From NCBI GenBank assembly GCA_014859305.1, contig JACUUM010000004.1:58-64057 (forward strand): 64,000 nucleotides of DNA, given 5' to 3'. Shown here one piece after another: positions 4,505 through 50,876 of the stretch. This stretch comes from Coriobacteriia bacterium. GTDB lineage: Bacteria; Actinomycetota; Coriobacteriia; Anaerosomatales; Kmv31. The position numbers were made by a program, and so were the translations under genes. Position 1 is the stretch's first letter. Every line of letters starts with the position of its first letter. The notes beneath the pieces are model-generated. The model searched no databases, was not told the origin of the DNA, and saw only the letters and a list, made by a program, of their open reading frames with translations.

Positions 4505-4579
4505 GGGCGATTGGCTCAGGGGGAGAGCGCTTCCTTCACACGGAAGAGGTCACTGGTTCAAATCCAGTATCGCCCACCA
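4505..4579 (+). tRNA. tRNA-Val (anticodon CAC), CCA encoded
   Basis: Manual cloverleaf: acceptor GGGCGAT/ATCGCCC, D-arm GCTC/GAGC, anticodon stem CTTCC/GGAAG with loop TTCACAC, T-arm ACTGG-TTCAAAT-CCAGT, discriminator A, then CCA. Confidence 0.93.
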
Positions 4580-5384: not shown

Positions 5385-6743
5385 TCAAGCCCACGCGGCC
5401 CAGTTGAGCGCCTCGCAGAAGGCGGGGTGTACGCCGAGGGTGGCGCGCATGTCCTCGGCCGTGGCGCGCACCCGGACCGCCAGCGCCAGCGCCCACACGA
5501 GCTCAGGCGCGGCGACGCCGGCCACGTGCGCCCCGACGAGGCGGCCGTCGTCGGCGGCGAAGAGCAGCTTGACGAAGCCGGTGCGTTCGTCGTCGATGAT
5601 AGCCGCGCCCAGCGGCTCGAACGGCTGGCGTCCGACGCGCACGGCGAGGCCGCGAGCCGCGGCCGCCTCCTCGGTGAGGCCCACCTGGCCGATGGGCGGA
5701 TGCGTGAACGTGACCTGCGGGACGACCGCGTCGTGGGGCAGGGGCCCACCGCCGACGATCGAGCGCGCCGCGAGGCGTCCGTCGTACGAGGCGAGCGGGG
5801 TCAGCATGAGGTCGCCGCGAGCGTCCCCCGCGAAGAACACGCGCGGGTTCGAGACGCTTCGGAGCGCCTCGTCGAGCACCGGCCTCCCGCGCTCGTCCGT
5901 CTCGACGCCTCCGGTGGCGAGGTCGAGCTCGGAGAGCGCCGGGCGGCGTCCCGCTGCCATCAGCACCCGCTGCGAGCCTATCGAGCTCTTCTCCCGCGGG
6001 GTCTCGTAGTAGGTGCGCAGGGCACCCGGCTCGCCCTCGATCGCGCTCACGCGCGCGCCCGTGACGAATCGCGCGCCTGTCGCTGCCATGCGCTTCGTGA
6101 CGACCCCCGCGGCCTCGGCGTCGGCATGCTCCAGCACGCGCACGCCGTCCGTGACGACGGAGACCTCGGTGCCGAACAGCGCGTACGCCGAGGCGAACTC
6201 CATCCCGACGTAGCCCCCGCCGATCACCAGCAGGCTCTCCGGCGGCTCGGGGTAGTGCAGCACGTCGTCCGAGACGTCGGCTAGCTCGGCCCCCGGGATG
6301 CCGAGGACGACCGGCTCCGAGCCGGCGGCCACCACCACGTGGTCCGGCGCCAGGACGCTGCCGCCGACCTCGAGGGTCTCAGGGGAGAGGAAGCGGGCGG
6401 GCGCGTCGACGCGCTCGATGCCGCGTGCCGCCAGCAGCGCCTCCTGGTCGCCCGCGTAGGTCTCCTGCGCGTGCCACTTCCAGGCGAGCACGCCCTGCCA
6501 GTCCAGCGCCGGCTCGCCGGGCAGCACGCCGAACTGCTCGGCGGAGCGGGTCAGCCTAAGCACGTCGGCAGAGCGGTAGAGGGCCTTCTTCGGGACGCAG
6601 CCCCGCCAGAGACACAATCCGCCGAGCTTACCGGGCTCGGCCACGGTGACGCGGAAGTCCGCGTCCGCAAGGATGCGAGCCGCCGCGGTCCCCGCGCTCC
6701 CGCCGCCCACGACCAGCACGGAGCCGCGGACCGCCACTGGCAC
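5385..6743 (-). CDS. class I pyridine nucleotide-disulfide oxidoreductase (dihydrolipoyl dehydrogenase / glutathione-reductase family)
   Basis: Motifs: VLVVGGGSAGTAAA FAD site, redox-active GGLCLWRGCVPKK (CxxxxC), second Rossmann LLVIGGGYVGMEFA, and a dimerisation domain ending LGVHPAFCEAL. The start is set at GTG 6743 behind AGAGGGGG. The remaining ~700 aa of the 1150-aa track ORF is antisense to the ABC-F gene. Confidence 0.8.
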   Translation of the reverse strand: MPVAVRGSVLVVGGGSAGTAAARILADADFRVTVAEPGKLGGLCLWRGCVPKKALYRSADVLRLTRSAEQFGVLPGEPALDWQGVLAWKWHAQETYAGDQEALLAARGIERVDAPARFLSPETLEVGGSVLAPDHVVVAAGSEPVVLGIPGAELADVSDDVLHYPEPPESLLVIGGGYVGMEFASAYALFGTEVSVVTDGVRVLEHADAEAAGVVTKRMAATGARFVTGARVSAIEGEPGALRTYYETPREKSSIGSQRVLMAAGRRPALSELDLATGGVETDERGRPVLDEALRSVSNPRVFFAGDARGDLMLTPLASYDGRLAARSIVGGGPLPHDAVVPQVTFTHPPIGQVGLTEEAAAARGLAVRVGRQPFEPLGAAIIDDERTGFVKLLFAADDGRLVGAHVAGVAAPELVWALALAVRVRATAEDMRATLGVHPAFCEALNWAAWA

Positions 6744-6767
6744 CCCCTCTGCTAGACTCACCCTGCC

Positions 6768-8828
<2,061 letters not shown>

Positions 8829-9037: not shown

Positions 9038-9403
9038 ATGCAGGCAGCGGCACCGCAGGACGTGATGCTGGTACTCGGCCTGGCCTTCGCCGCGGTCGCG
9101 TTCATCCTGGTGGTGCTCGGTCTCAACGCCGTTCTGGCGCCGCGCCGACCGACCCCCGAGAAGGTCGAGCCCTACGAGTGCGGCATGCCGCAAGCGGGTG
9201 GGCCATGGGGGCCCGTGAACGTCCGATTCAGCACCATCGCGCTGCTGTTCGTCCTCTTCGACGCCGAGGCCATCCTGCTGTTCGCCGTCGCGCCGCGGCT
9301 GCGCGGCTCGGCGGTCGGACTGCTCGAGGTCGGCGCCTTCGCCGCGCTCCTGGCGTTCGGGCTGTTCTACGCGTGGCGGAAGGGGGCGCTGCAGTGGCGA
9401 TAG
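9038..9403 (+). CDS. nuoA: NADH-quinone oxidoreductase subunit A
   Basis: SD AAGGAG upstream. 121 aa with 3 TM helices and the ND3-type EKVEPYECG...FDAEAILLF motifs. Confidence 0.9.
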
Positions 9404-10011
9404 TGGACGGGCTCGGCAAGGCCCTGGAGCGCATCCCCGGCGGGGGCGTCATCCTGACCTCGCTGGACGCCGTGCTGGACTGGTCCCGGGGGCACTCGTT
9501 GTGGGCGATGCCCATGGGGACGGCGTGCTGCGCGATGGAACTCATCGCGGCGTCGTTCTCCAAGTTCGACTTCGACCGTCACGGCACGTTCCCCAGGCCG
9601 GACCCACGGCACGTAGACGTCATGGTGGTGGCGGGGACCGTCACGCGCAAGATGGCGCCGGCGATAAAGAGGCTCTACGAGCAGATGGCCGAACCCAAGT
9701 GGGTGGTCGCCATGGGCAACTGCGCCGTCTCCGGCGGCATCTTCTACTACGACTCCTACTCGGTGGTGCGCGGCGTGGACGAGTTCCTGCCGGTCGACGT
9801 CTACATCGCGGGGTGCCCGCCGCGGCCGGAGGCCCTGCAGGACGCGATCCTTCGGCTGCGCGAGAAGGTCGCCACCGAGTCGATCTCGGAGGGGCGCCGC
9901 TACGAGCGCAGACTGCTGCTGCCCACTCCCGCCACTCGTCACGACCAGGAGACGCCTGCTGCCGCGTCAGCAGCGGGCGAGCGTGACGGAGGGGAAGGCG
10001 AGGTCGCGTGA
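9403..10011 (+). CDS. nuoB: NADH-quinone oxidoreductase subunit B
   Basis: GTG overlaps the nuoA TAG by 1 nt. N2 cluster ligands are present: [26 protein letters not shown]. There is a C-terminal low-complexity extension of about 40 aa. Confidence 0.9.
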
Positions 10012-10469
10012 ACATCGAAGAGCTGCGCGAGCACCTCTGCGCGACCCATCCGGACCTGTGCCCGCTGTTCTCGACAGAGTTCGGGGACGGGGTGCTCGGC
10101 GTCGAGCGCGGCGAGCTGCACGACGCCGCTTCCGACCTCCGCGACCTGGGCTTCGACCGCCTGGGGATGGTCACGGCGGTGGACCGCGGCGAGACCTTCG
10201 AGCTCGTCTACCGCCTGCAGTCGCGCTCGATGAGCGCCGGCATGTTCCTGAAGTGCGAGGTCCCCCGCTCGGAGCCGCGGGTCCGCTCGCTGACCGACCT
10301 GTGGCCGGCCGCCGATTGGCAGGAGCGCGAGACGTACGACCTCTTCGGCATCGAGTTCGAGGGCCATCCGGACCTGCGGCGCATCCTCCTGCCGCCGGAG
10401 TGGGAGGGCCACCCCTTGCGCAAGGACTACACCGATGACCGCATCGTCCCCCGGCCCGACTTCATCTGA
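10008..10469 (+). CDS. nuoC: NADH-quinone oxidoreductase subunit C
   Basis: GTGA overlap with nuoB. It has the 30-kDa subunit motif [26 protein letters not shown]. Confidence 0.9.
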
Positions 10470-10477
10470 GGTATCCG

Positions 10478-11626
10478 ATGGCTCTGGACATCCATAGCTC
10501 CTGCCCAGCGGTGGACGACGAGGGACGCGCCGTCACCGAGCTCGTCGTCAACGTCGGCCCGTCGCACCCCTCCACCCACGGGGTCTGCCGTGTCATCGCG
10601 CACCTCGACGGCGAGGTGATCACCAAGGCCGAGACGGTCATCGGCTACCTGCACCGCGGCATCGAGAAGATGACCGAGAACCGCACGTACCTCCAGGTCG
10701 TGCCGCTGACGGACCGGTTGGACTACGTCGGATCGATGTACGCGAACTGGGCCTACTGCCGCGCCGTCGAACGACTGGCGGGCATCGCGCTGCCCGAGCG
10801 CGCCGAGTACCTTCGCGTCATCACATGCGAGCTGCAGCGCATCGCCAGCCACATGATGGCGATGGGCTCTGCGGCGGCCGACGCGGGCGCCTTCACGATG
10901 TTCCTGTACGCGTTCAACCAGCGCGACTTCGTCGTGGACCTCTTCGAGCGCCTCTGCGGGGCCCGCCTCACCTACAACTACGTGCGGCCCGGCGGCGTGA
11001 GCTTCGATGTCCCTGACGACGGCTGGCTGGACGACGTGCGGGCCTTCTGCGCCCAGCATCGCGGCGCGGTGGCGGAGATGGACAAGCTCTTCTTCGGCAA
11101 CGTGATCACGCGCGGGCGCCTGAAGGGGATCGGCGTGCTCTCCGCCGAGGACGCGGTCGCATGGGGGGCTTCCGGTCCGGTCGCTCGCGGCAGCGGTGTC
11201 GACTGGGACCTGCGGCGCGACGACACCTACTCGGTCTACCCGCGTTTCGACTTCGAGGTGCCGCTGGGCAGCAACGGAGACGCGTACGACCGCAACCGCG
11301 TGCGGCTCTTCGAGTGCTACGAGTCCGTGAGCATCGTCGAGCAGGCCCTCGAGCAGATGGAGCCCGGGCGGGTGCGTGCCGAGGGGCTGCCGAGGCTGCT
11401 GAGGCCCAGGCCCGGCGACGCCTACGACCACATCGAGTCCGCCCGAGGCTCCCTGGGCGTGTACCTCGTGTCGGACGGCTCGCCCAAGCCCTACCGCATG
11501 AAGGTGCGCTCCCCCGCGTTCTGCAACCTGGCTCTGCTCGAGAAGCTCGCGGTCGGCCACATGATGTCCGACCTGGTGGTCATCCTCGGCTCGCTCGACC
11601 CGGTGTTCGGGGAGGTGGACCGGTGA
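10478..11626 (+). CDS. nuoD: NADH-quinone oxidoreductase subunit D
   Basis: 49-kDa subunit motifs: GPSHPSTHGV, GYLHRGIEK, SARGSLGVYL, RSPAFCNL. Confidence 0.92.
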   Translation: MALDIHSSCPAVDDEGRAVTELVVNVGPSHPSTHGVCRVIAHLDGEVITKAETVIGYLHRGIEKMTENRTYLQVVPLTDRLDYVGSMYANWAYCRAVERLAGIALPERAEYLRVITCELQRIASHMMAMGSAAADAGAFTMFLYAFNQRDFVVDLFERLCGARLTYNYVRPGGVSFDVPDDGWLDDVRAFCAQHRGAVAEMDKLFFGNVITRGRLKGIGVLSAEDAVAWGASGPVARGSGVDWDLRRDDTYSVYPRFDFEVPLGSNGDAYDRNRVRLFECYESVSIVEQALEQMEPGRVRAEGLPRLLRPRPGDAYDHIESARGSLGVYLVSDGSPKPYRMKVRSPAFCNLALLEKLAVGHMMSDLVVILGSLDPVFGEVDR

Positions 11627-12594
11627 GCTTGACGGGCTTCCTCGGAGGGGCAGTATGGGGACTCGCCGCCGGCGTCGCGGTGGCGGTGGCGACCGTCCTC
11701 GGCGTGTGGGGCGAGCGCAAGGTCTCCGCCCGGATACAGCGGCGGTACGGACCGCAGGAGGCCGGGCCGTTCGGGCTGCTGCAGCTCCCGTACGACTTCG
11801 TGAAGCTGCTGACCAAGGAGGACGTGCTGCCCAGGCAGGCCTCGCCCGGCGTGTTCCGGATGGCGCCGCTGCTGGTCACCACACCCATCCTCATGTCGCT
11901 GGTCGTCGTGCCGCTGGCGATGACGAGCGGGAACGAGGGCTGGGCGCCCGTGGACAGCTCGGTGGGCATGCTGTTCTTCCTCGCCGTGCCGTCGATCGCG
12001 GTGCTGGGGGTGCTGCTGGGCGGCTGGTCCTCGCGTAACACCTATGCCACCCTGGGCGGGCTCAGGGCCGCGGCGCAGATGATCTCGTACGAGCTCCCGC
12101 GCTCGCTGGCGGTGCTGAGCATCGTGCTGCTGGCCGGCTCGCTGAGGCCGCTGGCGGTGCTGAGCGAGTGGCGAGTGTGGTGGCTGCCGCTGACGTTCAT
12201 CGGCTTCGTCGTGTTCTTCATCGCTTCGCTGGCCGAGCTCAACCGCGGACCGTTCGACCTGCCGGAAGCGGAGTCCGAGCTCGTGGCGGGCTACTTCGCC
12301 GACTACTCCGGGATGCGGTGGGCGCTGTTCATGATGGCCGAGTACGGCGGGGCGCTGGCCACGTCGCTCTTCGCCGCGGTCGTGTTCTTCGGCGGAGGCT
12401 GGCCGCTCACCGGGGCCGCCGGCGTGGCCGTGCTCATCGTCAAGGCCGTCGTCTTGACGGTAGCGATGATGTGGGTCAAGTGGACGTTCCCGAGGATGCG
12501 CCCCGATCAGCTGATGACCACCGCCTGGAAGGTGCTGACGCCCCTGGCGCTGGTGCAGCTCCTCATCGTCGGGGTGGTGATCCCATGGCTCTAG
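11623..12594 (+). CDS. nuoH: NADH-quinone oxidoreductase subunit H
   Basis: GTGA overlap with the nuoD stop. ND1 motifs: ERKVSARIQRRYGPQEAGPFGLLQ, LAELNRGPFDLPEAESELVAGY. It is polytopic. The track ORF start at 11161 is a spurious extension. Confidence 0.9.
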   Translation: MSLTGFLGGAVWGLAAGVAVAVATVLGVWGERKVSARIQRRYGPQEAGPFGLLQLPYDFVKLLTKEDVLPRQASPGVFRMAPLLVTTPILMSLVVVPLAMTSGNEGWAPVDSSVGMLFFLAVPSIAVLGVLLGGWSSRNTYATLGGLRAAAQMISYELPRSLAVLSIVLLAGSLRPLAVLSEWRVWWLPLTFIGFVVFFIASLAELNRGPFDLPEAESELVAGYFADYSGMRWALFMMAEYGGALATSLFAAVVFFGGGWPLTGAAGVAVLIVKAVVLTVAMMWVKWTFPRMRPDQLMTTAWKVLTPLALVQLLIVGVVIPWL

Positions 12595-14684
12595 AGGAGA
12601 CCGAGGTGGGAGGCGCACCCGAGCCGAAGGGCGAGACGGCGCCGGCCAAGGCCGTCCAGCCGCGGTTGACGGTCACGGACGGGGACGGGCGCGGCGTCGG
12701 CGCGTTCGTCGCCGCCTGGCGCTCGCTCGCGACCGGCCTGGGCATCACCGCCCGGCACGCGTTCCGCAGACCGCTGACTGTACGCTACCCCGCCGAGAAG
12801 GTGGACCTGTCGCCTCGCTGGCGTGGCGCGCTGTCGCTGCGCGGGGCGCTGGGCGCGGACGAGATACCGCTGTTCTCCGTGCTCCCCACGGAGCACAACG
12901 CGGCGGTGGACGCCGCGTATCGGGCCGACCGCCTGCCCCCCTGCGTGGGCAACTGCCCCGCCAACGTCGATGTCCGAGGACAGAACTACCACCTCGCCGA
13001 GGGCCGCGCGGCCGAGGCCTACGAGCTCGTGCGACAGCGCAACATCCTCCCCGGCGTGCTCGGGCGCATCTGCCATCACCCCTGCGAGACCGCATGCCGG
13101 CGCAACTACTACGACGAGCCCGTCGCCGTGCGCCCGCTGCACCGGATCGCCTACGAGGGCTACGTGGACGTGCGAGAGGAGCGCGTGGCGCCGCTGCCGG
13201 TCACGCGGCCGCAGTCCGTCGCCGTCGTCGGTTCGGGACCGTCCGCCCTGGCCGCCGCGTACGACCTGATGACGCTCGGCTACAAGGTCACGATGTTCGA
13301 GAAGGAGGACACGCCCGGCGGGGCCCTGAACTCCGGCGTGCCGAGCTACCGCCTCCCGCGGGAGATCCTTCACGGCGAGATCGAGGACTTCGTCCGCATG
13401 GGCCTGGACCTGCGCTGCGGGATCGAGATAGGGCGCGACGTGCCGCTGGAGCACCTGATCGGCGAGTACGACGTCGTGCTCATCGCCGCCGGCCTGCAGG
13501 TGAGCCGCCTGCTGCCCATCCCGGGCGCGGACGCCGAGGGCGTGCGCGGCGCGCTGGAGTTCCTCAAGGCCGCGAACTGGAGGGGCGAGGCGGGGGTGCG
13601 CGGGAAGCGCGTGCTCGTGATCGGCGGCGGCAACGTGGCCGTCGACGTGGCCCGCTGCGCCCTGCGCGTCGGCGCCACCGAGGTCCGCCTGTCCTGCCTG
13701 GAGGGCGAGACCGAGATGCCCTGCCATCCCTGGGAGATAGAGGAGGCGCTGGACGAGGGCGTGATCGCGATGTGCGGCCAGGGCCCTCAGGAGGTGCTGA
13801 CCGGCGAGGGCGGCAAGGTCCGCGGCATGAAGCTCAGGCAGTGCCTGTCCGTGTTCGACGAGACGGGACGCTTCGCTCCCCAGTTCGGCGACGTGTACAC
13901 GGAGGTGGAGACGGACATCGTGGTCTTCTCGATCGGCCAGGGTTCCGACCTCAAGGGCGTGGTCACGGGCACCGACCTGGAGCTGGACGAGCGCGGCAAC
14001 CTGCCCGTGGACGGCGCGGTGTTCACGACGGCGGTGCCGGGCGTGTTCGCCTGTGGCGAGGTCGTCACCGGCCCCGGCAGTTGCATCGGGTCGATCGCGA
14101 CAGGGCACGAGGCGGCCACGTCCATCCACCGCTACCTCTCCGGCCAGAGCGTCTCCGAGGGGAGGGTGGCCCGGCCCGTGCCGCGCTACGACAAGTACGA
14201 GGCCGCCGTCCTCGACGGCGTCGAGGAGACTCGCCGCCGGGTGGAGATACCGATGGCGCCGGCCGAGGAGCGCGCGCGCGACTTCCGGCAGGTGGAGCTC
14301 GGCTTCACGCACCTCGAGGGGTTGATGGAGGCCGCGCGCTGCCTGCGCTGTCAGTCCGAGGTCTGCGTCGGTTGCCAGTTCTGCGCGCGCACGTGCCCCG
14401 ACTACGCGATCCGCGTCGAGCGGGTCGACGACCCGGGCCAGCGATGCCTGACCCGCTACGAGCTCGATCTCACCAAGTGCTGCTTCTGCGGTCTGTGCGC
14501 CGAGCAGTGTCCGACCGACGCGCTCACCCACACCGGGCAGTACGAGCTGTCCTTCTACCACCGCGACATGATGCTCTTCGACAAGGGTGAGATGCGGCGC
14601 CCGCGCACGGGGACGCGCGCGACCGGTGCCGACGGCGGTGCGGACGCGCCTTGCCCGCCGGTGGCCGAGGAGGGAGCGCTGTGA
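12585..14684 (+). CDS. nuoI: NuoI-type 2x[4Fe-4S] subunit carrying an inserted GltD/NfnB-like NAD(P)H-dependent FAD/Fe-S oxidoreductase module (699 aa)
   Basis: NuoI N-terminal segment at aa ~46-86: GITARHAFRRPLTVRYPAEKVDLSPRWRG. GltD-like part at aa ~118-520: CVGNCP, GRICHHPCETAC, VAVVGSGPSALAAAYDL, GGALNSGVPSYRLP, KRVLVIGGGNVAVDVARCA, VFACGEVVTG. NuoI ferredoxin core at aa ~594-668: CVGCQFCARTCP, CCFCGLCAEQCP, YELSFYHRDMMLFDKGEM. It occupies the nuoI position between nuoH and nuoJ. Confidence 0.85.
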   Translation: MALEETEVGGAPEPKGETAPAKAVQPRLTVTDGDGRGVGAFVAAWRSLATGLGITARHAFRRPLTVRYPAEKVDLSPRWRGALSLRGALGADEIPLFSVLPTEHNAAVDAAYRADRLPPCVGNCPANVDVRGQNYHLAEGRAAEAYELVRQRNILPGVLGRICHHPCETACRRNYYDEPVAVRPLHRIAYEGYVDVREERVAPLPVTRPQSVAVVGSGPSALAAAYDLMTLGYKVTMFEKEDTPGGALNSGVPSYRLPREILHGEIEDFVRMGLDLRCGIEIGRDVPLEHLIGEYDVVLIAAGLQVSRLLPIPGADAEGVRGALEFLKAANWRGEAGVRGKRVLVIGGGNVAVDVARCALRVGATEVRLSCLEGETEMPCHPWEIEEALDEGVIAMCGQGPQEVLTGEGGKVRGMKLRQCLSVFDETGRFAPQFGDVYTEVETDIVVFSIGQGSDLKGVVTGTDLELDERGNLPVDGAVFTTAVPGVFACGEVVTGPGSCIGSIATGHEAATSIHRYLSGQSVSEGRVARPVPRYDKYEAAVLDGVEETRRRVEIPMAPAEERARDFRQVELGFTHLEGLMEAARCLRCQSEVCVGCQFCARTCPDYAIRVERVDDPGQRCLTRYELDLTKCCFCGLCAEQCPTDALTHTGQYELSFYHRDMMLFDKGEMRRPRTGTRATGADGGADAPCPPVAEEGAL

Positions 14685-15178
14685 GCACGCTCGTGGGACA
14701 GACGCTCTTCTGGGGCCTGGCAGCGGTGGCGCTGACCGGCGCGGCGACGGTCGTGCTCACCCGGGACGTGATGCGGCTCGTGCTCGGCCTGGGCGCCTTC
14801 CTGCTCGCCGTGGCGGGGTACTTCCTGCTGTACGGCGCCGCGTTCCTCGCCGTCGCGCAGGTCTTCCTCTACGTGGGGGGCGTGCTCGTGCTCGTGCTGT
14901 TCGCGATCATGCTGCTGCACCGCACCGAGAAGGGCACCCCGGACCTGGACAACCGGCACGACGTCGGTTCCGCGATGGTCGCCGTCGCACTCTTCGTCCT
15001 GCTGGTCACGTCGCTGCAGGGTTCGCTCCCGTCGGGGGCGGCCGCCGCGGGGGCCGGGATCGAGGCGGTGGGCGACCGGCTGCTCGGCGCCCTGTTGCCG
15101 CACTTCGAGCTCGTCGGCGCCTTGCTGCTCGCGGCACTCGTGGCGGTGCTCTCTATCGTCGGAGGTGAGCGGCGGTGA
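14681..15178 (+). CDS. nuoJ: NADH-quinone oxidoreductase subunit J
   Basis: GTGA overlap with the nuoI stop, SD GAGGAGGGAG upstream. ND6-like TM protein (FLAVAQVFLYVGGVLVLVLFAIML). Confidence 0.85.
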   Translation: MSTLVGQTLFWGLAAVALTGAATVVLTRDVMRLVLGLGAFLLAVAGYFLLYGAAFLAVAQVFLYVGGVLVLVLFAIMLLHRTEKGTPDLDNRHDVGSAMVAVALFVLLVTSLQGSLPSGAAAAGAGIEAVGDRLLGALLPHFELVGALLLAALVAVLSIVGGERR

Positions 15179-15486
15179 ACGTGCTCGTCGTATGTGCCGC
15201 GCTGTTCTGCCTGGGGCTCTACGGCGTGCTCGTGAGGCGCGACGTGATCGGCGTGCTCGCCAGCGTCGAGGTCATGCTGGGCGCGGCCAGCGTGCAGCTG
15301 ATCGCGTCGGCGATGACGGCCGCCTCCTCGGTGGCCGGTCCCGATCCCGCCACCGCCGAGGCCCTGGGCCTGCTCGTGCTGGTGCTCGCCGCGGCCGAAG
15401 CCGCGGTGGGCCTCGCGCTGCTCGTCAGCGTCGTGAAGCGGACCGGCAGGGGCCGCGTGGACGAACTCGTCGAGGTGGAGGGGTAG
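15175..15486 (+). CDS. nuoK: NADH-quinone oxidoreductase subunit K
   Basis: GTGA overlap. 103 aa with 3 TM helices, ND4L-like (GLYGVLVRRDVIGVLASVEVML, AAAEAAVGLALLV). Confidence 0.88.
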   Translation: MNVLVVCAALFCLGLYGVLVRRDVIGVLASVEVMLGAASVQLIASAMTAASSVAGPDPATAEALGLLVLVLAAAEAAVGLALLVSVVKRTGRGRVDELVEVEG

Positions 15487-15487
15487 G

Positions 15488-17368
15488 ATGCGGCTTCTTC
15501 TCGACGCTCCCTGGCTGGCCGCGGCAGTGCCCGTGGCGCTCGCCGCTATCGTCGCCGCCGGAGGGTCGCGCCTTGCTCCGGTGACGAGGTGGGTGGCGGC
15601 TCTCGGTCCGCTGGCCGTGCTCCTCACCGGACTCGCGCACATAGCCGGACGCGGCGAAGGAGAGGCGGCGTCGCCGTTCGTCGGCGGGCTCACCGCATCG
15701 GCGTCCGTCCCGTGGATCGAGATCGGGGGGCGTTCGCTGGACGTGGGCTACGCCGTGGACGGCCTCACCTCGATCATGCTGGTCGTCGTGGGCTTCGTGG
15801 CGCTCATGGTCATGGTCTTCTCCGTGGGATACATGGCCGGCGATCGGGGATTGGCGCGCTACTACGCCGTCCTGTCGCTGTTCACCGCTTCGATGACCGG
15901 CCTGGTGCTGGCCGACGGGCTCGTCGGGCTCTTCATCGCGTGGGAGCTCGTGGGCGTGTGCAGCTACCTGCTCATCGGCTTCTGGTTCGAGAAGCCCACC
16001 GCGGCGGCCGCGGCGATGAAGGCGTTCCTCGTGACCCGGGTCGGCGACGTGGGCCTGTTCGTAGCGCTCGCGCTGCTCTGGGGCCACACCGGTGAGACCG
16101 GCTACACCCACGTGATGGCCGCGCTGCCCGACCTCGCACCATGGGCGCTCACCGCGGCTGCGCTGCTGCTGTTCGTGGGGGCCGCGGGCAAGTCGGCGCA
16201 GTTCCCGCTGCACATCTGGCTGCCCGACGCGATGGCCGGCCCCACGCCGGTCTCCGCGCTCATCCACGCCGCCACGATGGTCGCCGCGGGCGTCTTCCTG
16301 GTCGCGCGGACGTGGCCGCTGTTCGAGGCGTCCTCCGCCGCTCTGACGGTGATCCTCGGGATCGGGGCGTTCACCGCGCTCGCCTCGGCTACCATCGCCC
16401 TGGGACAGCACGACATCAAGAAGGTGCTGGCGTACTCGACGATCAGCCAGCTCGGCTTCATGTTCGCCGCGCTGGGCGCCGGCGTGTGGCGTGCCGCGAT
16501 GTTCCACCTGGTCACGCATGCCGCCTTCAAGGCGCTGCTCTTCCTCGGGTCGGGGTCGGTCATCCACGGGACCGACTCGCAGGACATGCGCGAGATGGGC
16601 GGGCTGGCGCGCAGGATGCCCTTCACGGCGGTCACGTGGGTCATCGGCGCCGCGGCGCTGGCCGGCCTCCCGCCCCTGTCAGGATTCTTCAGCAAGGACG
16701 AGGTCGTCCACGGCGTGCTGGGCGCGTCGACGGCCGCCGGCGCGGCGTTGCTCGTCGCCGCCGCCTTCACGGCCTTCTACATCACCCGGGCCACGGTGCT
16801 CACGTTCTTCGGGGAGTACCGGGGCAACGGTCATCCGCACGAGAGCGGCCCGGTGATGTGGCTGCCGCTCGTGGCGCTGGCCGTGCCCGCCGCGGTCCTG
16901 GGCGCCGGAGCCGGCGGGGTGGCGGAGCTGCTCGGAGGTCACGAGGAGGCGATATCGCTCCCCGTCGCGGCGGCCTCGGTGGCGGTGGCGCTCACCGGCA
17001 TCGCCGCGGGCTCGATGCTGTACCGCCGAGGGCCGGAGGCGGACGATCTCTTGGAGGCCCGCCTGGGTACCGCGTGGAGCGCGGCGCGGAACGCCTACGG
17101 CGTGGACGCGGCCGTGGGGCGGTTCGTCGTGGAACCGGTGCTCGGCCTCTCCCGCATGACGTACGCCGTGCTCGACCGCCTGACGTTCGACGGCATCGCG
17201 GAGGGTTCGGCATCGGTCGCGCGCTCCGTCGGCCGCGGACTCGCGCGGCTCCAGAGCGGCGACGGGCAATGGTACGCCGCGCTCATGGGCGCGGGGGTCA
17301 TCGCGCTCATCGCGCTGACGACCGCCGGGAGCGCGCTGGAGACGCTCCTCGGATGGATCGGGAGGTGA
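15488..17368 (+). CDS. nuoL: NADH-quinone oxidoreductase subunit L
   Basis: 626 aa antiporter-like subunit: IAWELVGVCSYLLIGFWFEKP, GKSAQFPLHIWLPDAMAGPTPVSALIHAATMV. Confidence 0.92.
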   Translation: MRLLLDAPWLAAAVPVALAAIVAAGGSRLAPVTRWVAALGPLAVLLTGLAHIAGRGEGEAASPFVGGLTASASVPWIEIGGRSLDVGYAVDGLTSIMLVVVGFVALMVMVFSVGYMAGDRGLARYYAVLSLFTASMTGLVLADGLVGLFIAWELVGVCSYLLIGFWFEKPTAAAAAMKAFLVTRVGDVGLFVALALLWGHTGETGYTHVMAALPDLAPWALTAAALLLFVGAAGKSAQFPLHIWLPDAMAGPTPVSALIHAATMVAAGVFLVARTWPLFEASSAALTVILGIGAFTALASATIALGQHDIKKVLAYSTISQLGFMFAALGAGVWRAAMFHLVTHAAFKALLFLGSGSVIHGTDSQDMREMGGLARRMPFTAVTWVIGAAALAGLPPLSGFFSKDEVVHGVLGASTAAGAALLVAAAFTAFYITRATVLTFFGEYRGNGHPHESGPVMWLPLVALAVPAAVLGAGAGGVAELLGGHEEAISLPVAAASVAVALTGIAAGSMLYRRGPEADDLLEARLGTAWSAARNAYGVDAAVGRFVVEPVLGLSRMTYAVLDRLTFDGIAEGSASVARSVGRGLARLQSGDGQWYAALMGAGVIALIALTTAGSALETLLGWIGR

Positions 17369-17372
17369 GGCC

Positions 17373-18824
17373 GTGCTGAGCGCAGTCGTTCTCGTACCGC
17401 TCGCCGGCGCGGTCCTCGTGGCGCTGGCCGGCAGGGGTTCCGCCGGCCTGGCGCGCGTGCTCGCACTGGCGTCGTCGCTGGCCGCGATGGCGGTCACGGG
17501 CGTCGCGCTGGCGGGCATGTCCGGCGCGCAGGGCCTCGTGGAGCGGCTGCCGGCCGGAGGCGAGGGCGCGACCTGGTGGGTGCTCTCGCTGGACGGCCTG
17601 GCAGCGCCGCTGGTCGCGCTGACGGCCTTCCTCGGCGTGATCTCGATCCTCGCGTCGTGGCGGATCGAGCGCTCGCCCGCGGCCCACCTCGCGCTGCTGC
17701 TCGCCCTGCAAGCGGCGGTGGCCGGCGTCTTCCTCGCCGCGCACGTCCTGCTCTTCTACGTGTTCTGGGAGGCCGTGCTGATCCCGATGTACTTCCTGAT
17801 CGGGCTTTGGGGACACGAGGACCGGCGCCACGCCGCCATGAAGTTCTTCATCTACACCTTCGCCGGCAGCGCGCTGATGCTCGTCGGACTGATGATGGTC
17901 GCGTTCTCCTCGGCGAGCCTGGAGTTCGTCCCGGGCTTCGGGCTGACGGCCGGAGGCATGGCCGACGAGATGCGTGCCACCGTGTTCTGGCTGCTCGCGG
18001 CGGGCTTCCTCGTGAAGATCCCGGTGATGGGACTCCATACGTGGCTCCCTGACGCCCACGTCGAGGCGCCTACCGCCGGCTCGATCATGCTCGCGGGCGT
18101 GCTGCTGAAGATGGGCGGGTACGGGATGATCCGCCTCGCGATGCCCGTGGCGGGCGAGGCCTTCGCCTCGGCACAGCCGGTGCTCGTGGCGCTGGGGATC
18201 GGGGGGATCATCTACGGGGCGCTCGTCGCGCTGGCGCAGAGCGACCTGAAGCGGCTCGTCGCCTACTCTTCCGTCTCGCACATGGGCTTCGTCGTGCTCG
18301 CGCTCGGCGTGGGGACGCCTCTCGCGCTGGGCGCGGCGATGCTCGTCATGGTCAGCCACGGGCTCGTGGCCGGCATGCTCTTCCTCCTGGTGGGTCTGCT
18401 GTACGACCGCACGCACACCCGGGAGATGGACCGCTTCGGCGGGCTCGGGCGAACCCTTCCCGGCTGGGCGACAGCCTTCACGTTCGCGGCGCTCGCCAGC
18501 CTGGGCCTGCCGGGCCTCTCAGGGTTCCCGGGAGAGCTCGTCACGGTGCTCGAGACCTTCGGCTCGATCGGCTGGTGGGCGGCCGTCGCCGCCGCGGGCG
18601 TCGTTCTGGCGGCCGCATACAACCTCGTCGCGGTCCGCCGCGTCAACCACGGGCCCGTCGCACAGGAATGGGCGGGCACCTCGGACCTGCGGGCGGGGGA
18701 GTGGGCCGCCGTCGCGCCGCTCGCGGCGGGGATCGTGGCGCTCGGGGTCTGGCCCGCCCTGGTCGTGGATGCCGCTGGGCCCGTGGTTCGGGCCCTGGCG
18801 GCGACGATCGGGGGTGGCTCGTGA
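17373..18824 (+). CDS. nuoM: NADH-quinone oxidoreductase subunit M
   Basis: 483 aa: FWEAVLIPMYFLIGLWG, HTWLPDAHVEAPTAGSIMLAGVLLKMGGYG. Confidence 0.92.
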   Translation: MLSAVVLVPLAGAVLVALAGRGSAGLARVLALASSLAAMAVTGVALAGMSGAQGLVERLPAGGEGATWWVLSLDGLAAPLVALTAFLGVISILASWRIERSPAAHLALLLALQAAVAGVFLAAHVLLFYVFWEAVLIPMYFLIGLWGHEDRRHAAMKFFIYTFAGSALMLVGLMMVAFSSASLEFVPGFGLTAGGMADEMRATVFWLLAAGFLVKIPVMGLHTWLPDAHVEAPTAGSIMLAGVLLKMGGYGMIRLAMPVAGEAFASAQPVLVALGIGGIIYGALVALAQSDLKRLVAYSSVSHMGFVVLALGVGTPLALGAAMLVMVSHGLVAGMLFLLVGLLYDRTHTREMDRFGGLGRTLPGWATAFTFAALASLGLPGLSGFPGELVTVLETFGSIGWWAAVAAAGVVLAAAYNLVAVRRVNHGPVAQEWAGTSDLRAGEWAAVAPLAAGIVALGVWPALVVDAAGPVVRALAATIGGGS

Positions 18825-20290
18825 GCGACTGGATGGTCCTGCTGCCCACCGGGCTGGTCCTGGCGGGCGCCGTCCTGGGTCTGACGCTGGACGCCGGGGA
18901 GCGCCGGCGCGCCGCCCTGGTCGTGATCGCGGCCGGCCTCGCCGCCGGCGCGACGGCGGCCTTCGTCCTGGCCGCCCGCGACACCGCGGTGCTGGGCTTC
19001 GACGCGTTCGGGTTCGTGCCGGCGCTATGGATGATCGCGGGGCTGGTCCACGCCCTGGCCGCTGTGGCCGTCCTGGGGGGCTACCGCGCGCTCAGCGCGG
19101 CGCCCAACGGGGGGCAGATGGCCGCCCTCGCGGCTCTGTCCGCGGCCGCCGCGGGCCTCCTGCCCGGCGTCGTCGACATAGTCGCGCTCGTCATACTGCT
19201 CGAGGCGGTCGCGCTCACCGGCTACGCGCTCGTGGCGGGCGCGCGCGGCCGGCGCTCCGACGAGGCCGCCATGAAGTACTTCATCCAGGGGGCGGTCGCC
19301 ACGGGGCTGCTGGTCTACGCGCTGGCCGTGCTGTACGGGACGCTGGGCAGCGGGCTGTCGTTGCCGGACATCGCGCGCGCGGTCGGCCCGGGCGACCGGG
19401 CGGCGCTCACCGCGTTCGCGCTCCTGCTCGCGGCCTTCGCGTTCAAGTTGGGCGCGTTCCCGTTCCACTCCTGGGCCCCCGACGCGTACGAGACCGCCCC
19501 GCCTTCGATGGCCTCGTTCCTGGCGAGCGGTCCGAAGCTCGCCGTGCTCGCGATCGCGTTCATCATGTTCCCGGTGGTCTTCTCCGGGGAACCGTTCGAC
19601 GGGCCGGCGCTGTGGATGCTGGGGGCGCTCGCCGTGGCGTCGATCGTCTTCGGGAACCTGGGGGGGCTGAAGCAGACGTCGTACGCGCGGATGCTCGCGT
19701 ACTCCGGCATCGCGCAGGTGGGCTACGCGCTCGTCGGGCTCACCGTGATGCACCTCGTGGGGTTGCCGAACTCGGTCCCGGTGTACCTGCTCGGCTCGAT
19801 GTACGCGGTCGCGGCCGCCGGCGCCTTCCTCGCGGCCCAGGCGTTCAGGGCGTCGGACCCCGCTTGGGACGGGACGATCGCCGGCCTGGCCGGCGCCGGC
19901 AAGCGCCGTCCGCTTCTGGCCGCCGCGGTCACGGTGTGCCTGCTCTCCCTCACGGGGATCCCGCTCACCGGCGGTTTCTGGGGCAAGTTCCTCGTCTTCG
20001 GGGGTGCCGTGACGACGGGCACGGCCTGGCTGGCCGTCGTCGGCGTCTTGGGGTCCGTCGTCTCGTTCGGGTACTACGGCGGCGCCATCCGCGCGATGTA
20101 CCTCGACGAGCCGCGCGTCCCCCCCGTGCCCGCCGCCGGGGCGGGCGAGGCCACCGCCGAGGGTGCTGTCGCGGACAGGACGGCCGAGGCGGCCGTGGTG
20201 GCGGTGGCTCTCGTCGTGGTCGCCGCAGGCGTGCTGCCGCTGTTCGACGGGCTGCGCTTCTTCACGCGATTCCTCGCGCTGCCGTTCTAG
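18821..20290 (+). CDS. nuoN: NADH-quinone oxidoreductase subunit N
   Basis: GTGA overlap with the nuoM stop. 489 aa: KYFIQGAVATG, FKLGAFPFHSWAPDAYETAP. The track ORF start at 18575 is a spurious extension. Confidence 0.9.
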   Translation: MSDWMVLLPTGLVLAGAVLGLTLDAGERRRAALVVIAAGLAAGATAAFVLAARDTAVLGFDAFGFVPALWMIAGLVHALAAVAVLGGYRALSAAPNGGQMAALAALSAAAAGLLPGVVDIVALVILLEAVALTGYALVAGARGRRSDEAAMKYFIQGAVATGLLVYALAVLYGTLGSGLSLPDIARAVGPGDRAALTAFALLLAAFAFKLGAFPFHSWAPDAYETAPPSMASFLASGPKLAVLAIAFIMFPVVFSGEPFDGPALWMLGALAVASIVFGNLGGLKQTSYARMLAYSGIAQVGYALVGLTVMHLVGLPNSVPVYLLGSMYAVAAAGAFLAAQAFRASDPAWDGTIAGLAGAGKRRPLLAAAVTVCLLSLTGIPLTGGFWGKFLVFGGAVTTGTAWLAVVGVLGSVVSFGYYGGAIRAMYLDEPRVPPVPAAGAGEATAEGAVADRTAEAAVVAVALVVVAAGVLPLFDGLRFFTRFLALPF

Positions 20291-47189: not shown

Positions 47190-47315
47190 TGCGCTTTCTT
47201 CAGGGCGGGGTGGAAGTCCCCACCGGCGGTGAGAGCCCGCGAGCCCCGATCGAAGGGGCAGACCCGGTGGAATCCCGGGGCCGACGGTGACAGTCCGGAT
47301 GGGAGAAGGAAGGTC
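47190..47315 (+). promoter_or_regulatory. FMN riboswitch (RFN element)
   Basis: The conserved core is present: CTTCAGGGCGGGGTGGAAGTCCCCACCGGCGGTGAGAGCCCGCGAGC ... GACCCGGTGGAATCCCGGGGCCGACGGTGACAGTCCGGATGGGAGAAGGAAGG. P1 pairs CTTTCTTC (47194-47201) with GAAGGAAG (47305-47312). It lies directly upstream of ribD. Confidence 0.93.
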
Positions 47316-48473: not shown

Positions 48474-49139
48474 GTGTTCACCGGACTTGTCGAGTCGCAG
48501 GGCGTCATCACGCGTGTCGAGCGGGTCCCGGGCGGGGTCCGGCTGGAGGTCTACGCTCCCGAGTTCGGGCGCGACATGTCGATCGGCGATTCGATAGCGG
48601 TCGATGGGGTGTGCCTGACCGTCGTGAAGTTCATCCGCGGCGCGTTCCTCGCCGACGTGAGCGACGAGACCTTGAGGGTGACCACGCTGGGCCGCCTTCA
48701 GCAGGCGGGGAAGGTGAACCTGGAGCGTGCGCTCCGGCTCTCCGACCGCCTCGGCGGGCACCTCGTCACCGGGCATGTCGACGGCGTCGGGCGGCTCGAG
48801 AGGCGGCTACCGGCCGGCAACTCGACCGTGTACACGTTCAGCGCCCCCGCGGGCGTGGCCGAGTACCTCGTGCCGAAGGGCTCGGTGGCGGTGGACGGCA
48901 TCTCGCTGACGGTGGCCTCCCTGCGACACACCGACTTCACCGCCGCCGTCGTGCCGCACACCGAGGAGGTCACCACGCTGAAGGAGAAGGCGATCGGCTC
49001 CCCGGTGAACCTGGAGGCCGACATGCTCGCCAAGTACGTCAGGCGCTACGTCGCACTGTACGAGGGAGCCGAGGAGTCCGCCGGCGAGACCCGCCGCGGG
49101 CTGGGCGAGATGCTGCGGGACTTCACGGAGGGCAGGTGA
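48474..49139 (+). CDS. ribE: riboflavin synthase (alpha chain)
   Basis: MFTGLVE, GDSIAVDGVCLTV, and the repeated lumazine-binding half (GSVAVDGISLTV). Confidence 0.92.
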   Translation: MFTGLVESQGVITRVERVPGGVRLEVYAPEFGRDMSIGDSIAVDGVCLTVVKFIRGAFLADVSDETLRVTTLGRLQQAGKVNLERALRLSDRLGGHLVTGHVDGVGRLERRLPAGNSTVYTFSAPAGVAEYLVPKGSVAVDGISLTVASLRHTDFTAAVVPHTEEVTTLKEKAIGSPVNLEADMLAKYVRRYVALYEGAEESAGETRRGLGEMLRDFTEGR

Positions 49140-50411: not shown

Positions 50412-50876
50412 ATGGCGACGTACCAAGGCGACTTCATCGGCACCGACCTCAAGATCGGCGTCGTCGTGAGCCGCTTCAACGAGCTCCTGTCCGCGCGTCT
50501 GCTCGACGGCGCCCGCGACGCGCTGGCGCGCCACGGGACGGCGCCGGAAGCGGTCGACGTCGCCTGGGTGCCCGGCGCCTTCGAGCTGCCGCTGGCGGCC
50601 AAACGTATGGCTGCCTCGGGCGCCTACGATGCCGTGATAGCTCTCGGCGTGGTGATCAGAGGCGGGACCCCGCACTTCGAGTACGTAGCCGCCGAGGTGA
50701 GCAAGGGCGTGGCTTCCACGTCGCTGGACACCGGGGTCCCCGTGATCTTCGGCGTCGTCACCGCCGACACGATCGAACAAGCGGTGGAACGGGCAGGCAC
50801 CAAGGCCGGCAACAAGGGATGGGACGCGGCGCTGTCGGCCATCGAGATGGCGAACCTGCTGAAGGCGATGCCGTAG
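50412..50876 (+). CDS. ribH: 6,7-dimethyl-8-ribityllumazine synthase
   Basis: [31 protein letters not shown]. Confidence 0.93.

Follow-up and report, generated by a model that had tools for sequence, protein, structure and literature searches.

The 11-subunit form of complex I that lacks NuoE, NuoF, and NuoG (NuoEFG) is common in anaerobes, and the source of its electrons is recognized as an unsolved question: searches have not revealed a partner shared by these complexes, and ferredoxin is generally taken to be the donor (PMC11238625, PMC9686372). This question is raised by a locus in a 64,000-nucleotide stretch of contig JACUUM010000004.1 (the window), which belongs to a metagenome-assembled genome (MAG) of a Coriobacteriia bacterium. 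The operon at this locus comprises 11 genes in the order nuoABCDH-I*-JKLMN, and the gene marked I*, located between nuoH and nuoJ, encodes 699 amino acids (aa). Its product is a NuoI with a flavoprotein inserted in the loop before the first cluster motif. As judged by alignment, the insert is a complete NfnB/StnC-type dehydrogenase for reduced nicotinamide adenine dinucleotide or its phosphate (NAD(P)H), with flavin adenine dinucleotide (FAD) and two [4Fe-4S] clusters, and it is circularly permuted relative to NfnB. We consider it likely that the operon encodes a quinone-reducing complex I of 11 subunits whose NuoI carries this permuted module for electron input in place of NuoEFG. The fusion therefore bears on the donor problem of these complexes.

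The open reading frame (ORF) at 12585–14684 on the plus strand is translated without interruption. Its ATG overlaps the nuoH stop codon, and a GTG at 12606, which follows GAGGAG, is an equally good start that would give a product of 692 aa. This shorter form is 100% identical to NCBI protein P0001 from a "Coriobacteriia bacterium" MAG. The G+C content of the window is 72%, and that of third codon positions in the fused ORF is high, as in real genes. The gene and its parts are as follows.

12585–14684, plus strand: fused nuoI, 699 aa (translation, Pfam, NCBIfam, and PDB sequence alignments).
12693–12845, plus strand: NuoI N-terminal segment, aa 37–87, with an amphipathic helix, TVRYPAEK, and SPRWRG (aligned with NDUFS8 23–69, 34 bits).
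12846–12929, plus strand: entry linker from NuoI to the cassette, aa 88–115 (no family match).
12930–13169, plus strand: main part of the Fer4_20 domain, aa 116–195 (Pfam; residue alignment with NfnB and StnC).
13206–14147, plus strand: FAD-binding and NAD(P)H-binding Rossmann domains, aa 208–521 (Pyr_redox_2, AlphaFold2 model, Foldseek).
13608–13715, plus strand: nicotinamide-nucleotide Rossmann motif, aa 342–377, GGGNVAVD... (gap-free NfnB alignment).
14148–14255, plus strand: return linker from the C-terminal end of the flavoprotein to the permuted N-terminal segment, aa 522–557 (low model confidence, no family match).
14256–14351, plus strand: permuted N-terminal segment of the Fer4_20/NfnB fold, aa 558–589, ending in EAARCLRC (aligned with NfnB 11–48).
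14352–14594, plus strand: NuoI core with two [4Fe-4S] clusters, aa 590–670 (aligned with NDUFS8 73–154, 59 bits).
14595–14684, plus strand: C-terminal tail, aa 671–699, and stop codon, overlapping the nuoJ start.

The host was identified by a PDB sequence search, in which NDUFS8 23–69 aligned with residues 41–87 of the query and NDUFS8 73–154 with residues 590–670. About 503 residues thus occupy a loop of about 4 residues in canonical NuoI, just before the first CxxCxxCxxxCP motif. When compared with the NuoI model TIGR01971, the native protein scored 101 bits in two stretches, below the cut-off of 113.05. After in silico excision of residues 91–589, the score rose above the cut-off to 122.3 bits in one stretch covering positions 1–120 of 121. 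Pfam placed Fer4_7 at aa 594–646. Like other NuoI subunits, the protein carries an N-terminal helix with YPxEK...RFRG and a pair of CxxCxxCxxxCP motifs, and its gene is flanked by nuoH and nuoJ; it departs from the small single-domain size of the subunit (699 aa versus approximately 160–210 aa).

Residues Y68, P69, R78, W79, R80, and G81 of the N-terminal segment are invariant among relatives. An AlphaFold2 (AF2) model of the 699-aa protein, built from a 46-sequence alignment and used for fold search only, predicts a helix at aa 38–59. The entry linker is partially conserved in Coriobacteriia and shorter in locus L078, from a Candidatus Geothermocultoraceae MAG (Actinomycetota, class Aquicultoria). 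The core, in which the motifs CVGCQFCARTCP and CCFCGLCAEQCP are present, closes with a YELSFYHRD...FDKGEM tail. The C-terminal tail that follows carries a GTRATGxD motif, with R678, T680, and G681 invariant in Coriobacteriia. It is specific to Coriobacteriia and absent from L070, L073, and L078, among them the Elusimicrobia (L070) and Aquicultoria (L078) versions.

Between the two NuoI parts, Pfam detected Fer4_20 at aa 117–190 (56 bits; cut-off 25.8) and Pyr_redox_2 at aa 211–505 (92.3 bits; cut-off 26.1). The cassette contains CVGNCP (C120 and C124), GRICHHPCETAC (C163, C167, and C171), VAVVGSGPSALAAAYDL, GGALNSGVPSYRLP, KRVLVIGGGNVAVDVARCA, and VFACGEVVTG, and GxGxxG and GxGxxA nucleotide motifs are seen in it. 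The best NCBIfam model was PRK12771, "NAD(P)-binding protein" (433 and 398 bits; cut-off 516). Among PDB sequences, the highest scores were obtained for the NfnABC large subunit 9BOV_A (308 bits) and StnC 8OH5_C (292 bits), followed by Thermococcus sibiricus NfnA 9N5U (268 bits), NfnB 4YLF_B (250 bits), and Pyrococcus furiosus NfnI (224 bits), with GltD (160 bits) and DPD (96 bits) lower. The mean predicted local distance difference test (pLDDT) score of the AF2 model was 67, and mostly above 85 in the flavoprotein core. A Foldseek search with this model returned StnC, NfnABC, NfnB, GltD, and DPD as top matches, the same ranking as by sequence. The return linker also has a counterpart in StnC.

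Identity as a true glutamate synthase small subunit was considered and rejected. TIGR01317 scored 200 bits (cut-off 448) and TIGR01318 scored 185 bits (cut-off 483), and the operon contains no gltB.

An earlier note, made from the letters of this DNA, had described a 699-aa gene in the nuoI position, with a canonical NuoI N-terminal segment and a core for two [4Fe-4S] clusters around a GltD-type flavoprotein, in an operon without nuoEFG. The uninterrupted ORF between nuoH and nuoJ, the NDUFS8 alignments, and the TIGR01971 match of the excised sequence bear out this description of the host; profile, PDB sequence, and Foldseek searches agree on the middle region; and only nuoABCDH-I*-JKLMN was found at the locus. 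Every motif that the note quoted is present at its place in the product. Fer4_20 and Pyr_redox_2 lie, as it had expected, inside a split NuoI match, with Fer4_7 behind them. Its label "GltD/NfnB/SudA-like" named the right family and can be refined, the closest relatives belonging to the NfnB/StnC branch rather than to GltD.

The cassette does not begin where NfnB begins. The Fer4_20 match starts at profile position 29, and the first two cysteines of the C-x2-C-x4-C-x3-CP motif are missing upstream of C120. In HMMER alignments, NfnB matched in two pieces, residues 46–462 with query 119–521 and residues 11–48, a segment ending in RCLQC, with query 558–595. The N-terminal CxxC segment, which comes first in the linear domain order, is thus found after the flavoprotein domains. 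We assembled a de-permuted construct in silico from residues 549–589 followed by 116–525. The construct restored the C-x2-C-x4-C-x3-CP motif exactly and matched Fer4_20 over positions 1–105 with 77 bits (native 56 bits) and NfnB over residues 11–462 in one stretch with 278 bits (native 250 bits). The scores for P. furiosus NfnI and GltD were raised as well. The odd cysteine count of the cassette can be explained by the circular permutation, which puts C586 and C589 after the flavoprotein. The chain passes into the fold directly ahead of the residue matching NfnB Cys47 and out of it directly behind the one matching Cys42, as domain insertion into a short host loop requires.

The ligands of the iron-sulfur (Fe-S) clusters were mapped from the published NfnB ligand set by residue-level alignment, and their conservation was counted in 72 full-length aligned relatives. 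In NfnB, the distal cluster is bound by Cys39, Cys42, Cys47, and Cys100, and the proximal cluster by Cys51, Cys90, Cys96, and Glu117 (PMC7596348). These residues correspond, in the same order, to C586, C589, C120, and C171 for the distal [4Fe-4S] cluster and to C124, C163, C167, and H186 for the proximal one. The seven cassette cysteines are invariant (72/72), and position 186 (window 13140–13142) is His in 71 sequences and Lys in one. The eight NuoI cysteines, C594/597/600/604 and C632/635/638/642, are likewise invariant in all 72. According to the usual ferredoxin pattern, C594, C597, C600, and C642 would bind cluster N6a, and C604, C632, C635, and C638 would bind N6b. The four [4Fe-4S] clusters together account for 15 Cys and one His.

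The column of H186 holds Glu in NfnB, Lys170 in StnC, and His in most NuoI-fused proteins. In a set of 150 representatives from the wider family, this His was confined to NuoI-fused proteins and occurred in none of the approximately 135 non-fused ones. With His as a ligand, the proximal cluster may have a potential adjusted to electron transfer towards N6a. In canonical complex I, N6a is the cluster that receives electrons from NuoG cluster N5. Here, C589, the last ligand of the distal cassette cluster, precedes C594, the first ligand of N6a, by only five residues, so that the distal cluster must adjoin N6a. We infer the occupancy of the cofactor sites and the distances between the clusters, and that from the distal cluster to N6a is expected to be at most 14 Å.

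Two further cysteines of the NAD-binding domain, C397 (window 13773–13775) and C420 (13842–13844), are invariant in all 72 Coriobacteriia-type relatives. Their positions are not cluster ligands in NfnB or StnC.

The nucleotide site was compared with that of NfnB in a gap-free alignment across the second Rossmann fold, in which C371-L372-E373 stands opposite NfnB Y310-R311-R312. L372 and E373 are invariant (72/72), and the first position is C, S, or A. An acidic residue at the end of the strand is a classic NAD determinant. The YRR motif holds the 2'-phosphate of NADPH, and DsrL-2, which has YRR, was NADP(H)-only by measurement (PMC7596348). In DsrL-1, YRR is replaced by S/T, L/V/..., and F/E/..., and NAD(H) was strongly preferred or required when measured (PMC7596348). 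Given C-L-E where a YRR pocket would bind the 2'-phosphate, the enzyme of the window is rather likely to use NADH.

No NuoE/F/G-type domain was found in the operon or in the other window ORFs scanned (some small ORFs were left unscanned). In the proposed scheme, NADH would bind the second Rossmann fold and transfer a hydride to FAD, from which single electrons would exit via the proximal [4Fe-4S] cluster (C124, C163, C167, and H186) to the distal one (C120, C171, C586, and C589). Positioned where the cassette meets the host, the distal cluster would stand in for NuoG cluster N5 and feed N6a. Electrons would then pass through N6b and N2, in NuoB, to menaquinone at the NuoD/NuoH site, and this flow would drive proton pumping by NuoH, A, J, K, L, M, and N. 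One subunit of 699 aa would replace the three-subunit NuoEFG N-module. The machine would be reversible, with NAD+ reduction from quinol driven by the proton-motive force. We infer quinone as the acceptor and also the physiological direction. A built-in NAD(P)H:FAD/Fe-S module wired to the N6a/N6b-to-N2 chain and replacing the N-module had been proposed in the earlier note, and the fold, the ligands, and the conservation as a single ORF (see below) argue for such an arrangement.

Anaerosoma tenue and Parvivirga hydrogeniphila, the only cultured relatives, have an 11-gene nuo operon without NuoEFG, for which the authors proposed ferredoxin as the donor without mention of an insert (PMC9686372). 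Two MAGs labeled Anaerosomatales (L025 and L052) carry the fused gene; no isolate names occurred in a homologue search seeded with an Anaerosomatales MAG or among cluster members.

Several points weigh against a quinone-reducing complex fed by NADH through the cassette. Respiratory quinones were "not detected" in both cultured Anaerosomatales, although their genomes encode quinone-dependent enzymes all the same (PMC9686372). In the AF2 model, pLDDT falls under 50 for the Fe-S regions and for the parts belonging to NuoI, and the geometry between cassette and host is tentative. The native NuoI and PRK12771 scores lie below the curated cut-offs. The NADH prediction is a motif rule transferred from DsrL and NfnB, and the closest solved relatives of the cassette, StnC and NfnB, are NADPH enzymes.

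Complex I is reversible in general, and the same machine may operate in reverse. Quinol from a membrane-bound uptake hydrogenase, together with the proton-motive force, would then reduce NAD(P)+ and supply CO2 fixation in H2- or formate-oxidizing subsurface anaerobes. The cultured Anaerosomatales grow lithotrophically on H2 or formate, and their genomes encode a group 1i [NiFe] hydrogenase with cytochrome b and a reductive glycine pathway, with no complex II or III (PMC9686372). Moreover, AvDsrL-1A, a non-YRR relative, is biased towards NAD+ reduction (PMC7596348). However, nothing in the sequence sets the direction, which is a question of physiology with the anatomy unchanged, and many carriers (Dehalococcoidales, Firmicutes, and Elusimicrobia MAGs) are probably heterotrophic fermenters. 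We regard reverse operation as a tentative alternative, possible though doubtful.

The reading with NADH also competes with one in which the module of the window takes NADPH, like StnC, NfnB, and GltD, and the complex pumps protons as an NADPH:quinone oxidoreductase. NADPH is the nucleotide bound by every close relative of solved structure, and YRR is kept in other NuoI-fused lineages (P0125, P0127, P0129, P0142, P0151, and P0164), which are predicted to use NADPH and in which an NADPH-driven version is very probable. In contrast, Leu-Glu occupies the positions of both 2'-phosphate-binding arginines in the window protein, as in each of the 72 aligned relatives, and the non-YRR DsrL enzymes preferred NAD(H) or used it exclusively when measured (PMC7596348). 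NADPH is thus an unlikely substrate for the enzyme of the window.

The acceptor side depends on the rest of the operon. NuoX was the best NCBIfam family for each of the ten neighboring genes, and most of them exceeded the curated cut-off.

9038–9403, plus strand: nuoA (NCBIfam matches to NuoA/NAD(P)H-quinone oxidoreductase subunit 3).
9394–10011, plus strand: nuoB (NF005012 NuoB, 224 bits versus cut-off 116; start GTG at 9394 or 9403).
10008–10469, plus strand: nuoC (TIGR01961 NuoC_fam, 124 bits versus cut-off 122).
10478–11626, plus strand: nuoD (NF004739, 460 bits versus cut-off 360).
11623–12594, plus strand: nuoH (NF004741 NuoH, 315 bits versus cut-off 305).
14681–15178, plus strand: nuoJ (NCBIfam NuoJ matches; likely start GTG at 14681 after GGAGG, in an ORF open from 14651).
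15175–15486, plus strand: nuoK (NF004320, 64 bits versus cut-off 57).
15488–17368, plus strand: nuoL (NF005141, 621 bits versus cut-off 556).
17373–18824, plus strand: nuoM (TIGR01972, 464 bits versus cut-off 264).
18821–20290, plus strand: nuoN (TIGR01770, 258 bits, below the cut-off of 333 yet far the best family).

NuoD keeps the His (HPSTHG, H34) and Tyr (TDRLDY, Y83) of the quinone site. The His is present in 73 of 73 related loci and the Tyr in 72 of 73, every distant lineage included. The NuoB product has the GTACCA motif with the tandem cysteines of cluster N2, which is also kept across the related loci, including the distant lineages. In PDB searches, NuoD scored 343 bits against NDUFS2 versus 230 bits against MBS and 190 bits against MBH, and its best matches were quinone-reducing 49-kDa subunits, with which both the His and the Tyr motif align. 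The 49-kDa type of NuoD, together with the retained His, Tyr, and N2 cysteines, argues against a quinone-independent complex of the Mbx or Rnf kind.

The reading thus opposed holds that the complex does not reduce quinone and is an ion-translocating ferredoxin:NAD(P)+ oxidoreductase of Rnf/Mbx type, or uses another acceptor, with the GltD module as an NAD(P)+-reducing output. It draws on a description of mbx-like operons with an NAD(P)+-reducing "flavoprotein related to gltD" in place of NuoI (Degli Esposti 2015, PMC4758237) and on the quinones not detected in the two cultured species. Against it stand, besides the NuoD scores and the conserved residues, a canonical NuoHAJKLMN membrane arm that is not Mrp-like, a fused operon that lies beside a complete rnf operon, where a second ferredoxin:NAD+ pump would be redundant, and the position of the flavoprotein at the N6a end, from which coupling would still need a terminal acceptor at the NuoB/NuoD site. 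We judge this reading improbable. Assignment of the operon to the Mbx type itself was rejected, the membrane subunits being canonical NuoHAJKLMN rather than Mrp-like and the quinone site of NuoD being intact.

The NfnB-like flavin could also bifurcate or confurcate electrons among NAD(P)H, ferredoxin, and quinone, making a bifurcating complex I. The cassette is homologous to the bifurcating NfnB (250 bits), the Arg equivalent to NfnB R201 and StnC R239 is invariant among the 72 relatives (R256), and a ferredoxin donor was proposed by the authors who studied the related organisms (PMC9686372). However, bifurcation is very unlikely because a single visible wire leaves the flavin and leads to N6a, because none of the operons examined has a gene for an NfnA-like or HydBC-like partner, and because the same cassette has lost bifurcation in StnC (PMC10482914); the proximal ligand is also His and not the Glu of NfnB. 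No NfnA-like gene was found in the operon or in the window ORFs scanned.

Membership of the electron-bifurcating NfnAB group was considered as a separate assignment and rejected. The locus has no NfnA partner, and it has His186 instead of Glu and C-L-E instead of YRR.

The conservation of the fused gene was then assessed. In a protein collection, homologues formed more than 120 clusters at 90% identity that were full-length and 66–78% identical. Where the source named an organism, which was the case for a minority, these homologues belonged to Coriobacteriia or Actinobacteria MAGs. In a survey restricted to a single genome for each GTDB species, a relative was encoded in 285 genomes. Synteny and reading frames were counted in 80 fetched related loci from species-level genomes. 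The order nuoA-B-C-D-H-[NuoI-N/cassette/NuoI-C]-J-K-L-M-N is kept in these 80 loci as far as the contigs reach, and in 79 of them a single ORF spans NuoI-N, cassette, and NuoI-C. The exception is a MAG (L061:9970–12102) in which the NuoI N-terminal part and the cassette lie in different frames; the break probably stems from an indel introduced in sequencing or assembly and not from a gene divided in two. Loci L070 and L078 are outliers with 45–49% identity and have the same synteny and motifs.

That a frameshift, a mis-assembly, or a decaying pseudogene joined a flavoprotein gene to nuoI is next to impossible: the window comes from a MAG and related L061 has a frame break, but against this count the single ORF in 79 of 80 independent species-level genomes, the relatives in 285 genomes, the more than 120 clusters matching over full length, the cluster ligands and cofactor motifs that are invariant or nearly so in 72 sequences, the coding-typical third-position G+C, and a join that is seamless by residue on both sides. 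The frameshift or assembly-join reading is rejected on these comparative data. The worry about an assembly join raised in the earlier note is thereby laid to rest, since the fusion is kept as a single ORF in hundreds of genomes of several phyla, and the neighborhood survey it suggested finds the fused gene always in the nuoI position, in nuo operons of several lineages.

More distant fused proteins were sought in an exhaustive search of 1.84 billion representatives, which yielded approximately 12 clusters (50% identity) of NuoI-fused proteins. A profile search added MAG sources from Candidatus Subteraquimicrobiales, Candidatus Aquicultor, Firmicutes, Anaerolineae, and Dehalococcoidales. The neighborhoods of five distant members again showed nuoABCDH-I*-JKL(MN), with L081–L083, L085, and L086 sharing the position between nuoH and nuoJ. 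On a short metagenome contig (L084:1–2584), the fused gene P0126 directly follows nuoD with no nuoH between them, an order unlike that of all other loci. In P0221 (L082:8001–9902), the cassette lies between the two NuoI Fe-S motifs, after CTGCFTCARSCP, and not before the first one. Its operon, nuoABCDH-I*-JK, is directly beside a divergently oriented rnf operon with ApbE. The different insertion site in P0221 points to an independent insertion. In a rough neighbor-joining tree of the cassette, made without bootstrap and not relied on, the NuoI-fused proteins fell into several groups among non-fused relatives.

We slightly favor, over its negation, the general view that a minimal complex I, in which a single NuoI with a mobile permuted cassette replaces the N-module that carries flavin mononucleotide (FMN), arose more than once, is spread over at least four phyla of anaerobes, and exists in NADH (C-L-E) and NADPH (YRR) flavors. 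More than one origin is proposed because two different insertion sites are seen in NuoI.

In the operon of P0164 (L083:132–4301), the gene directly upstream of nuoA encodes a StnC/NfnABC-like protein of 1389 aa with Fer2_4, Fer4_20, Pyr_redox_2, and molybdopterin domains. The cassette therefore occurs twice in one locus, in two hosts.

The other window ORFs scanned encode housekeeping functions, including rhamnose biosynthesis, an ABC-F protein, the shikimate pathway, a riboflavin operon, and FeoB. An FMN riboswitch (RF00050, 112.5 bits) lies at window 47192–47314 on the plus strand, upstream of the riboflavin operon, which comprises a ribD-like gene at about 47.3–48.4 kb, riboflavin synthase at 48474–49139, and lumazine synthase at 50412–50876. 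The mechanical ORF start at 47229 falls inside the riboswitch, so the real ribD start must be further downstream. A tRNA-Val (CAC) at 4505–4579 on the plus strand is the only tRNA in the window. The ORF at 57794–58714 on the plus strand has an unusual pairing of an RNase H-like RVT_3 domain (aa 46–167) with 6-pyruvoyl-tetrahydropterin synthase/QueD (aa 188–305); its upstream part overlaps the preceding gene, and its start is uncertain. A class-I pyridine nucleotide-disulfide oxidoreductase (Pyr_redox_2 and Pyr_redox_dim, similar to lipoamide dehydrogenase or MerA) is encoded at 5385–6782 on the minus strand, approximately 2 kb upstream of the nuo operon and inside a much longer mechanical ORF.

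The fusion may be read as a Rosetta stone. It suggests that at least one class of 11-subunit complex I is fed by pyridine nucleotide through FAD and a two-cluster module, with N6a as the entry point, and that the core of complex I can acquire input modules through insertion of a domain, here the same cassette that is used in the StnC and NfnABC enzymes. If this is true, it gives a concrete answer, in these lineages, to what donates electrons to a complex I without NuoEFG. The enzyme would be the simplest NADH-oxidizing complex I known, with five Fe-S clusters and one flavin versus eight to nine clusters and FMN, which would recommend it for studies of structure and mechanism. In the YRR lineages, proton pumping would be driven by NADPH, and proton-pumping NADPH:quinone oxidoreductases of the complex I type would exist. 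The annotation is also corrected. Fused proteins appear in databases as "FAD-dependent oxidoreductase", "glutamate synthase beta-like", or "formate dehydrogenase beta subunit" and never as NuoI. Because of these names, neither NuoI nor the link to NADH is recognized in metabolic reconstructions made from MAGs of OPB41/Anaerosomatales, Aquicultoria, and Dehalococcoidales.

Modular input to complex I, the GltD cassette in the Fe-S hosts StnC and NfnABC, and gltD-related flavoproteins at the NuoI position of mbx-like operons (PMC4758237) are already known. In the searchable literature, outside which subscription journals lie, we found no description of a NuoI-flavoprotein fusion in bona fide Nuo operons; the passage on mbx-like operons in PMC4758237 was the sole text bearing on it, and PMC5736913 and PMC6338057 mention gltD and nuo only in unrelated passages.

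Compared with canonical NuoI (Nqo9, or NDUFS8/TYKY), the fused protein shares the N-terminal helix with YPxEK...RFRG, the N6a and N6b motifs, the YEL... tail, and a gene flanked by nuoH and nuoJ. The canonical subunit, however, has only approximately 160–210 aa and is fed by NuoG N5, whereas the 699-aa protein would be fed by its own flavoprotein. The best match by sequence and fold is to StnC of the Sporomusa-type transhydrogenase StnABC (8OH5) and to the large subunits of NfnABC (9BOV and 9N5U). StnC consists of a GltD-like NADPH domain (aa 102–565) placed in a NuoG-like domain by domain insertion, with a non-bifurcating FAD and a linear Fe-S wire (PMC10482914). It shares with the fused NuoI the permuted GltD/NfnB cassette in an Fe-S host and the "RCLxC" strand after the flavoprotein, in the layout of StnC residues 95–590. 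The hosts differ, being soluble and NuoG-like (NuoG/FdhF-like class) in StnC and the NuoI of a membrane complex here. StnC binds NADPH through YRR and has Lys170 at the proximal cluster, whereas the fused NuoI has C-L-E and His186. StnC is also accompanied by StnAB/HydBC-like partners, of which there are none in the fused nuo operon.

NfnB (4YLF and 5JCA) shares the fold, the FAD and nucleotide sites, and, one to one, both ligand sets. In contrast to the fused NuoI, it has a linear order, a Glu ligand, and a YRR pocket; it bifurcates and depends on NfnA, for which the nuo operon has no gene. DsrL and the GltD-ferredoxin proteins of PRK12771 type likewise combine an NfnB-like module with a following ferredoxin domain for two [4Fe-4S] clusters, and DsrL occurs in YRR and non-YRR flavors (PMC7596348). 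These proteins are soluble, whereas here the ferredoxin domain is of NuoI type and has the N-terminal segment and tail of NuoI.

The mbx-like operons of Thermotoga and some proteobacteria resemble the present operon in having a GltD-family flavoprotein with, or in place of, a NuoI-type subunit (PMC4758237). They differ in being of Mbx/Mrp type, with a NuoD homologue that has vestigial NiFe ligands and a proposed reaction from ferredoxin to NAD(P)+ (PMC4758237); the Thermotoga proteins were compared by description. Cyanobacterial NDH-1, which uses ferredoxin, Fpo, which uses FpoF, and the complex I-like enzyme of Desulfitobacterium share the nuoABCDHIJKLMN core without NuoEFG. In these other 11-subunit complexes, the donor is a separate protein or unknown, whereas in the complex described here it is covalently built into NuoI.

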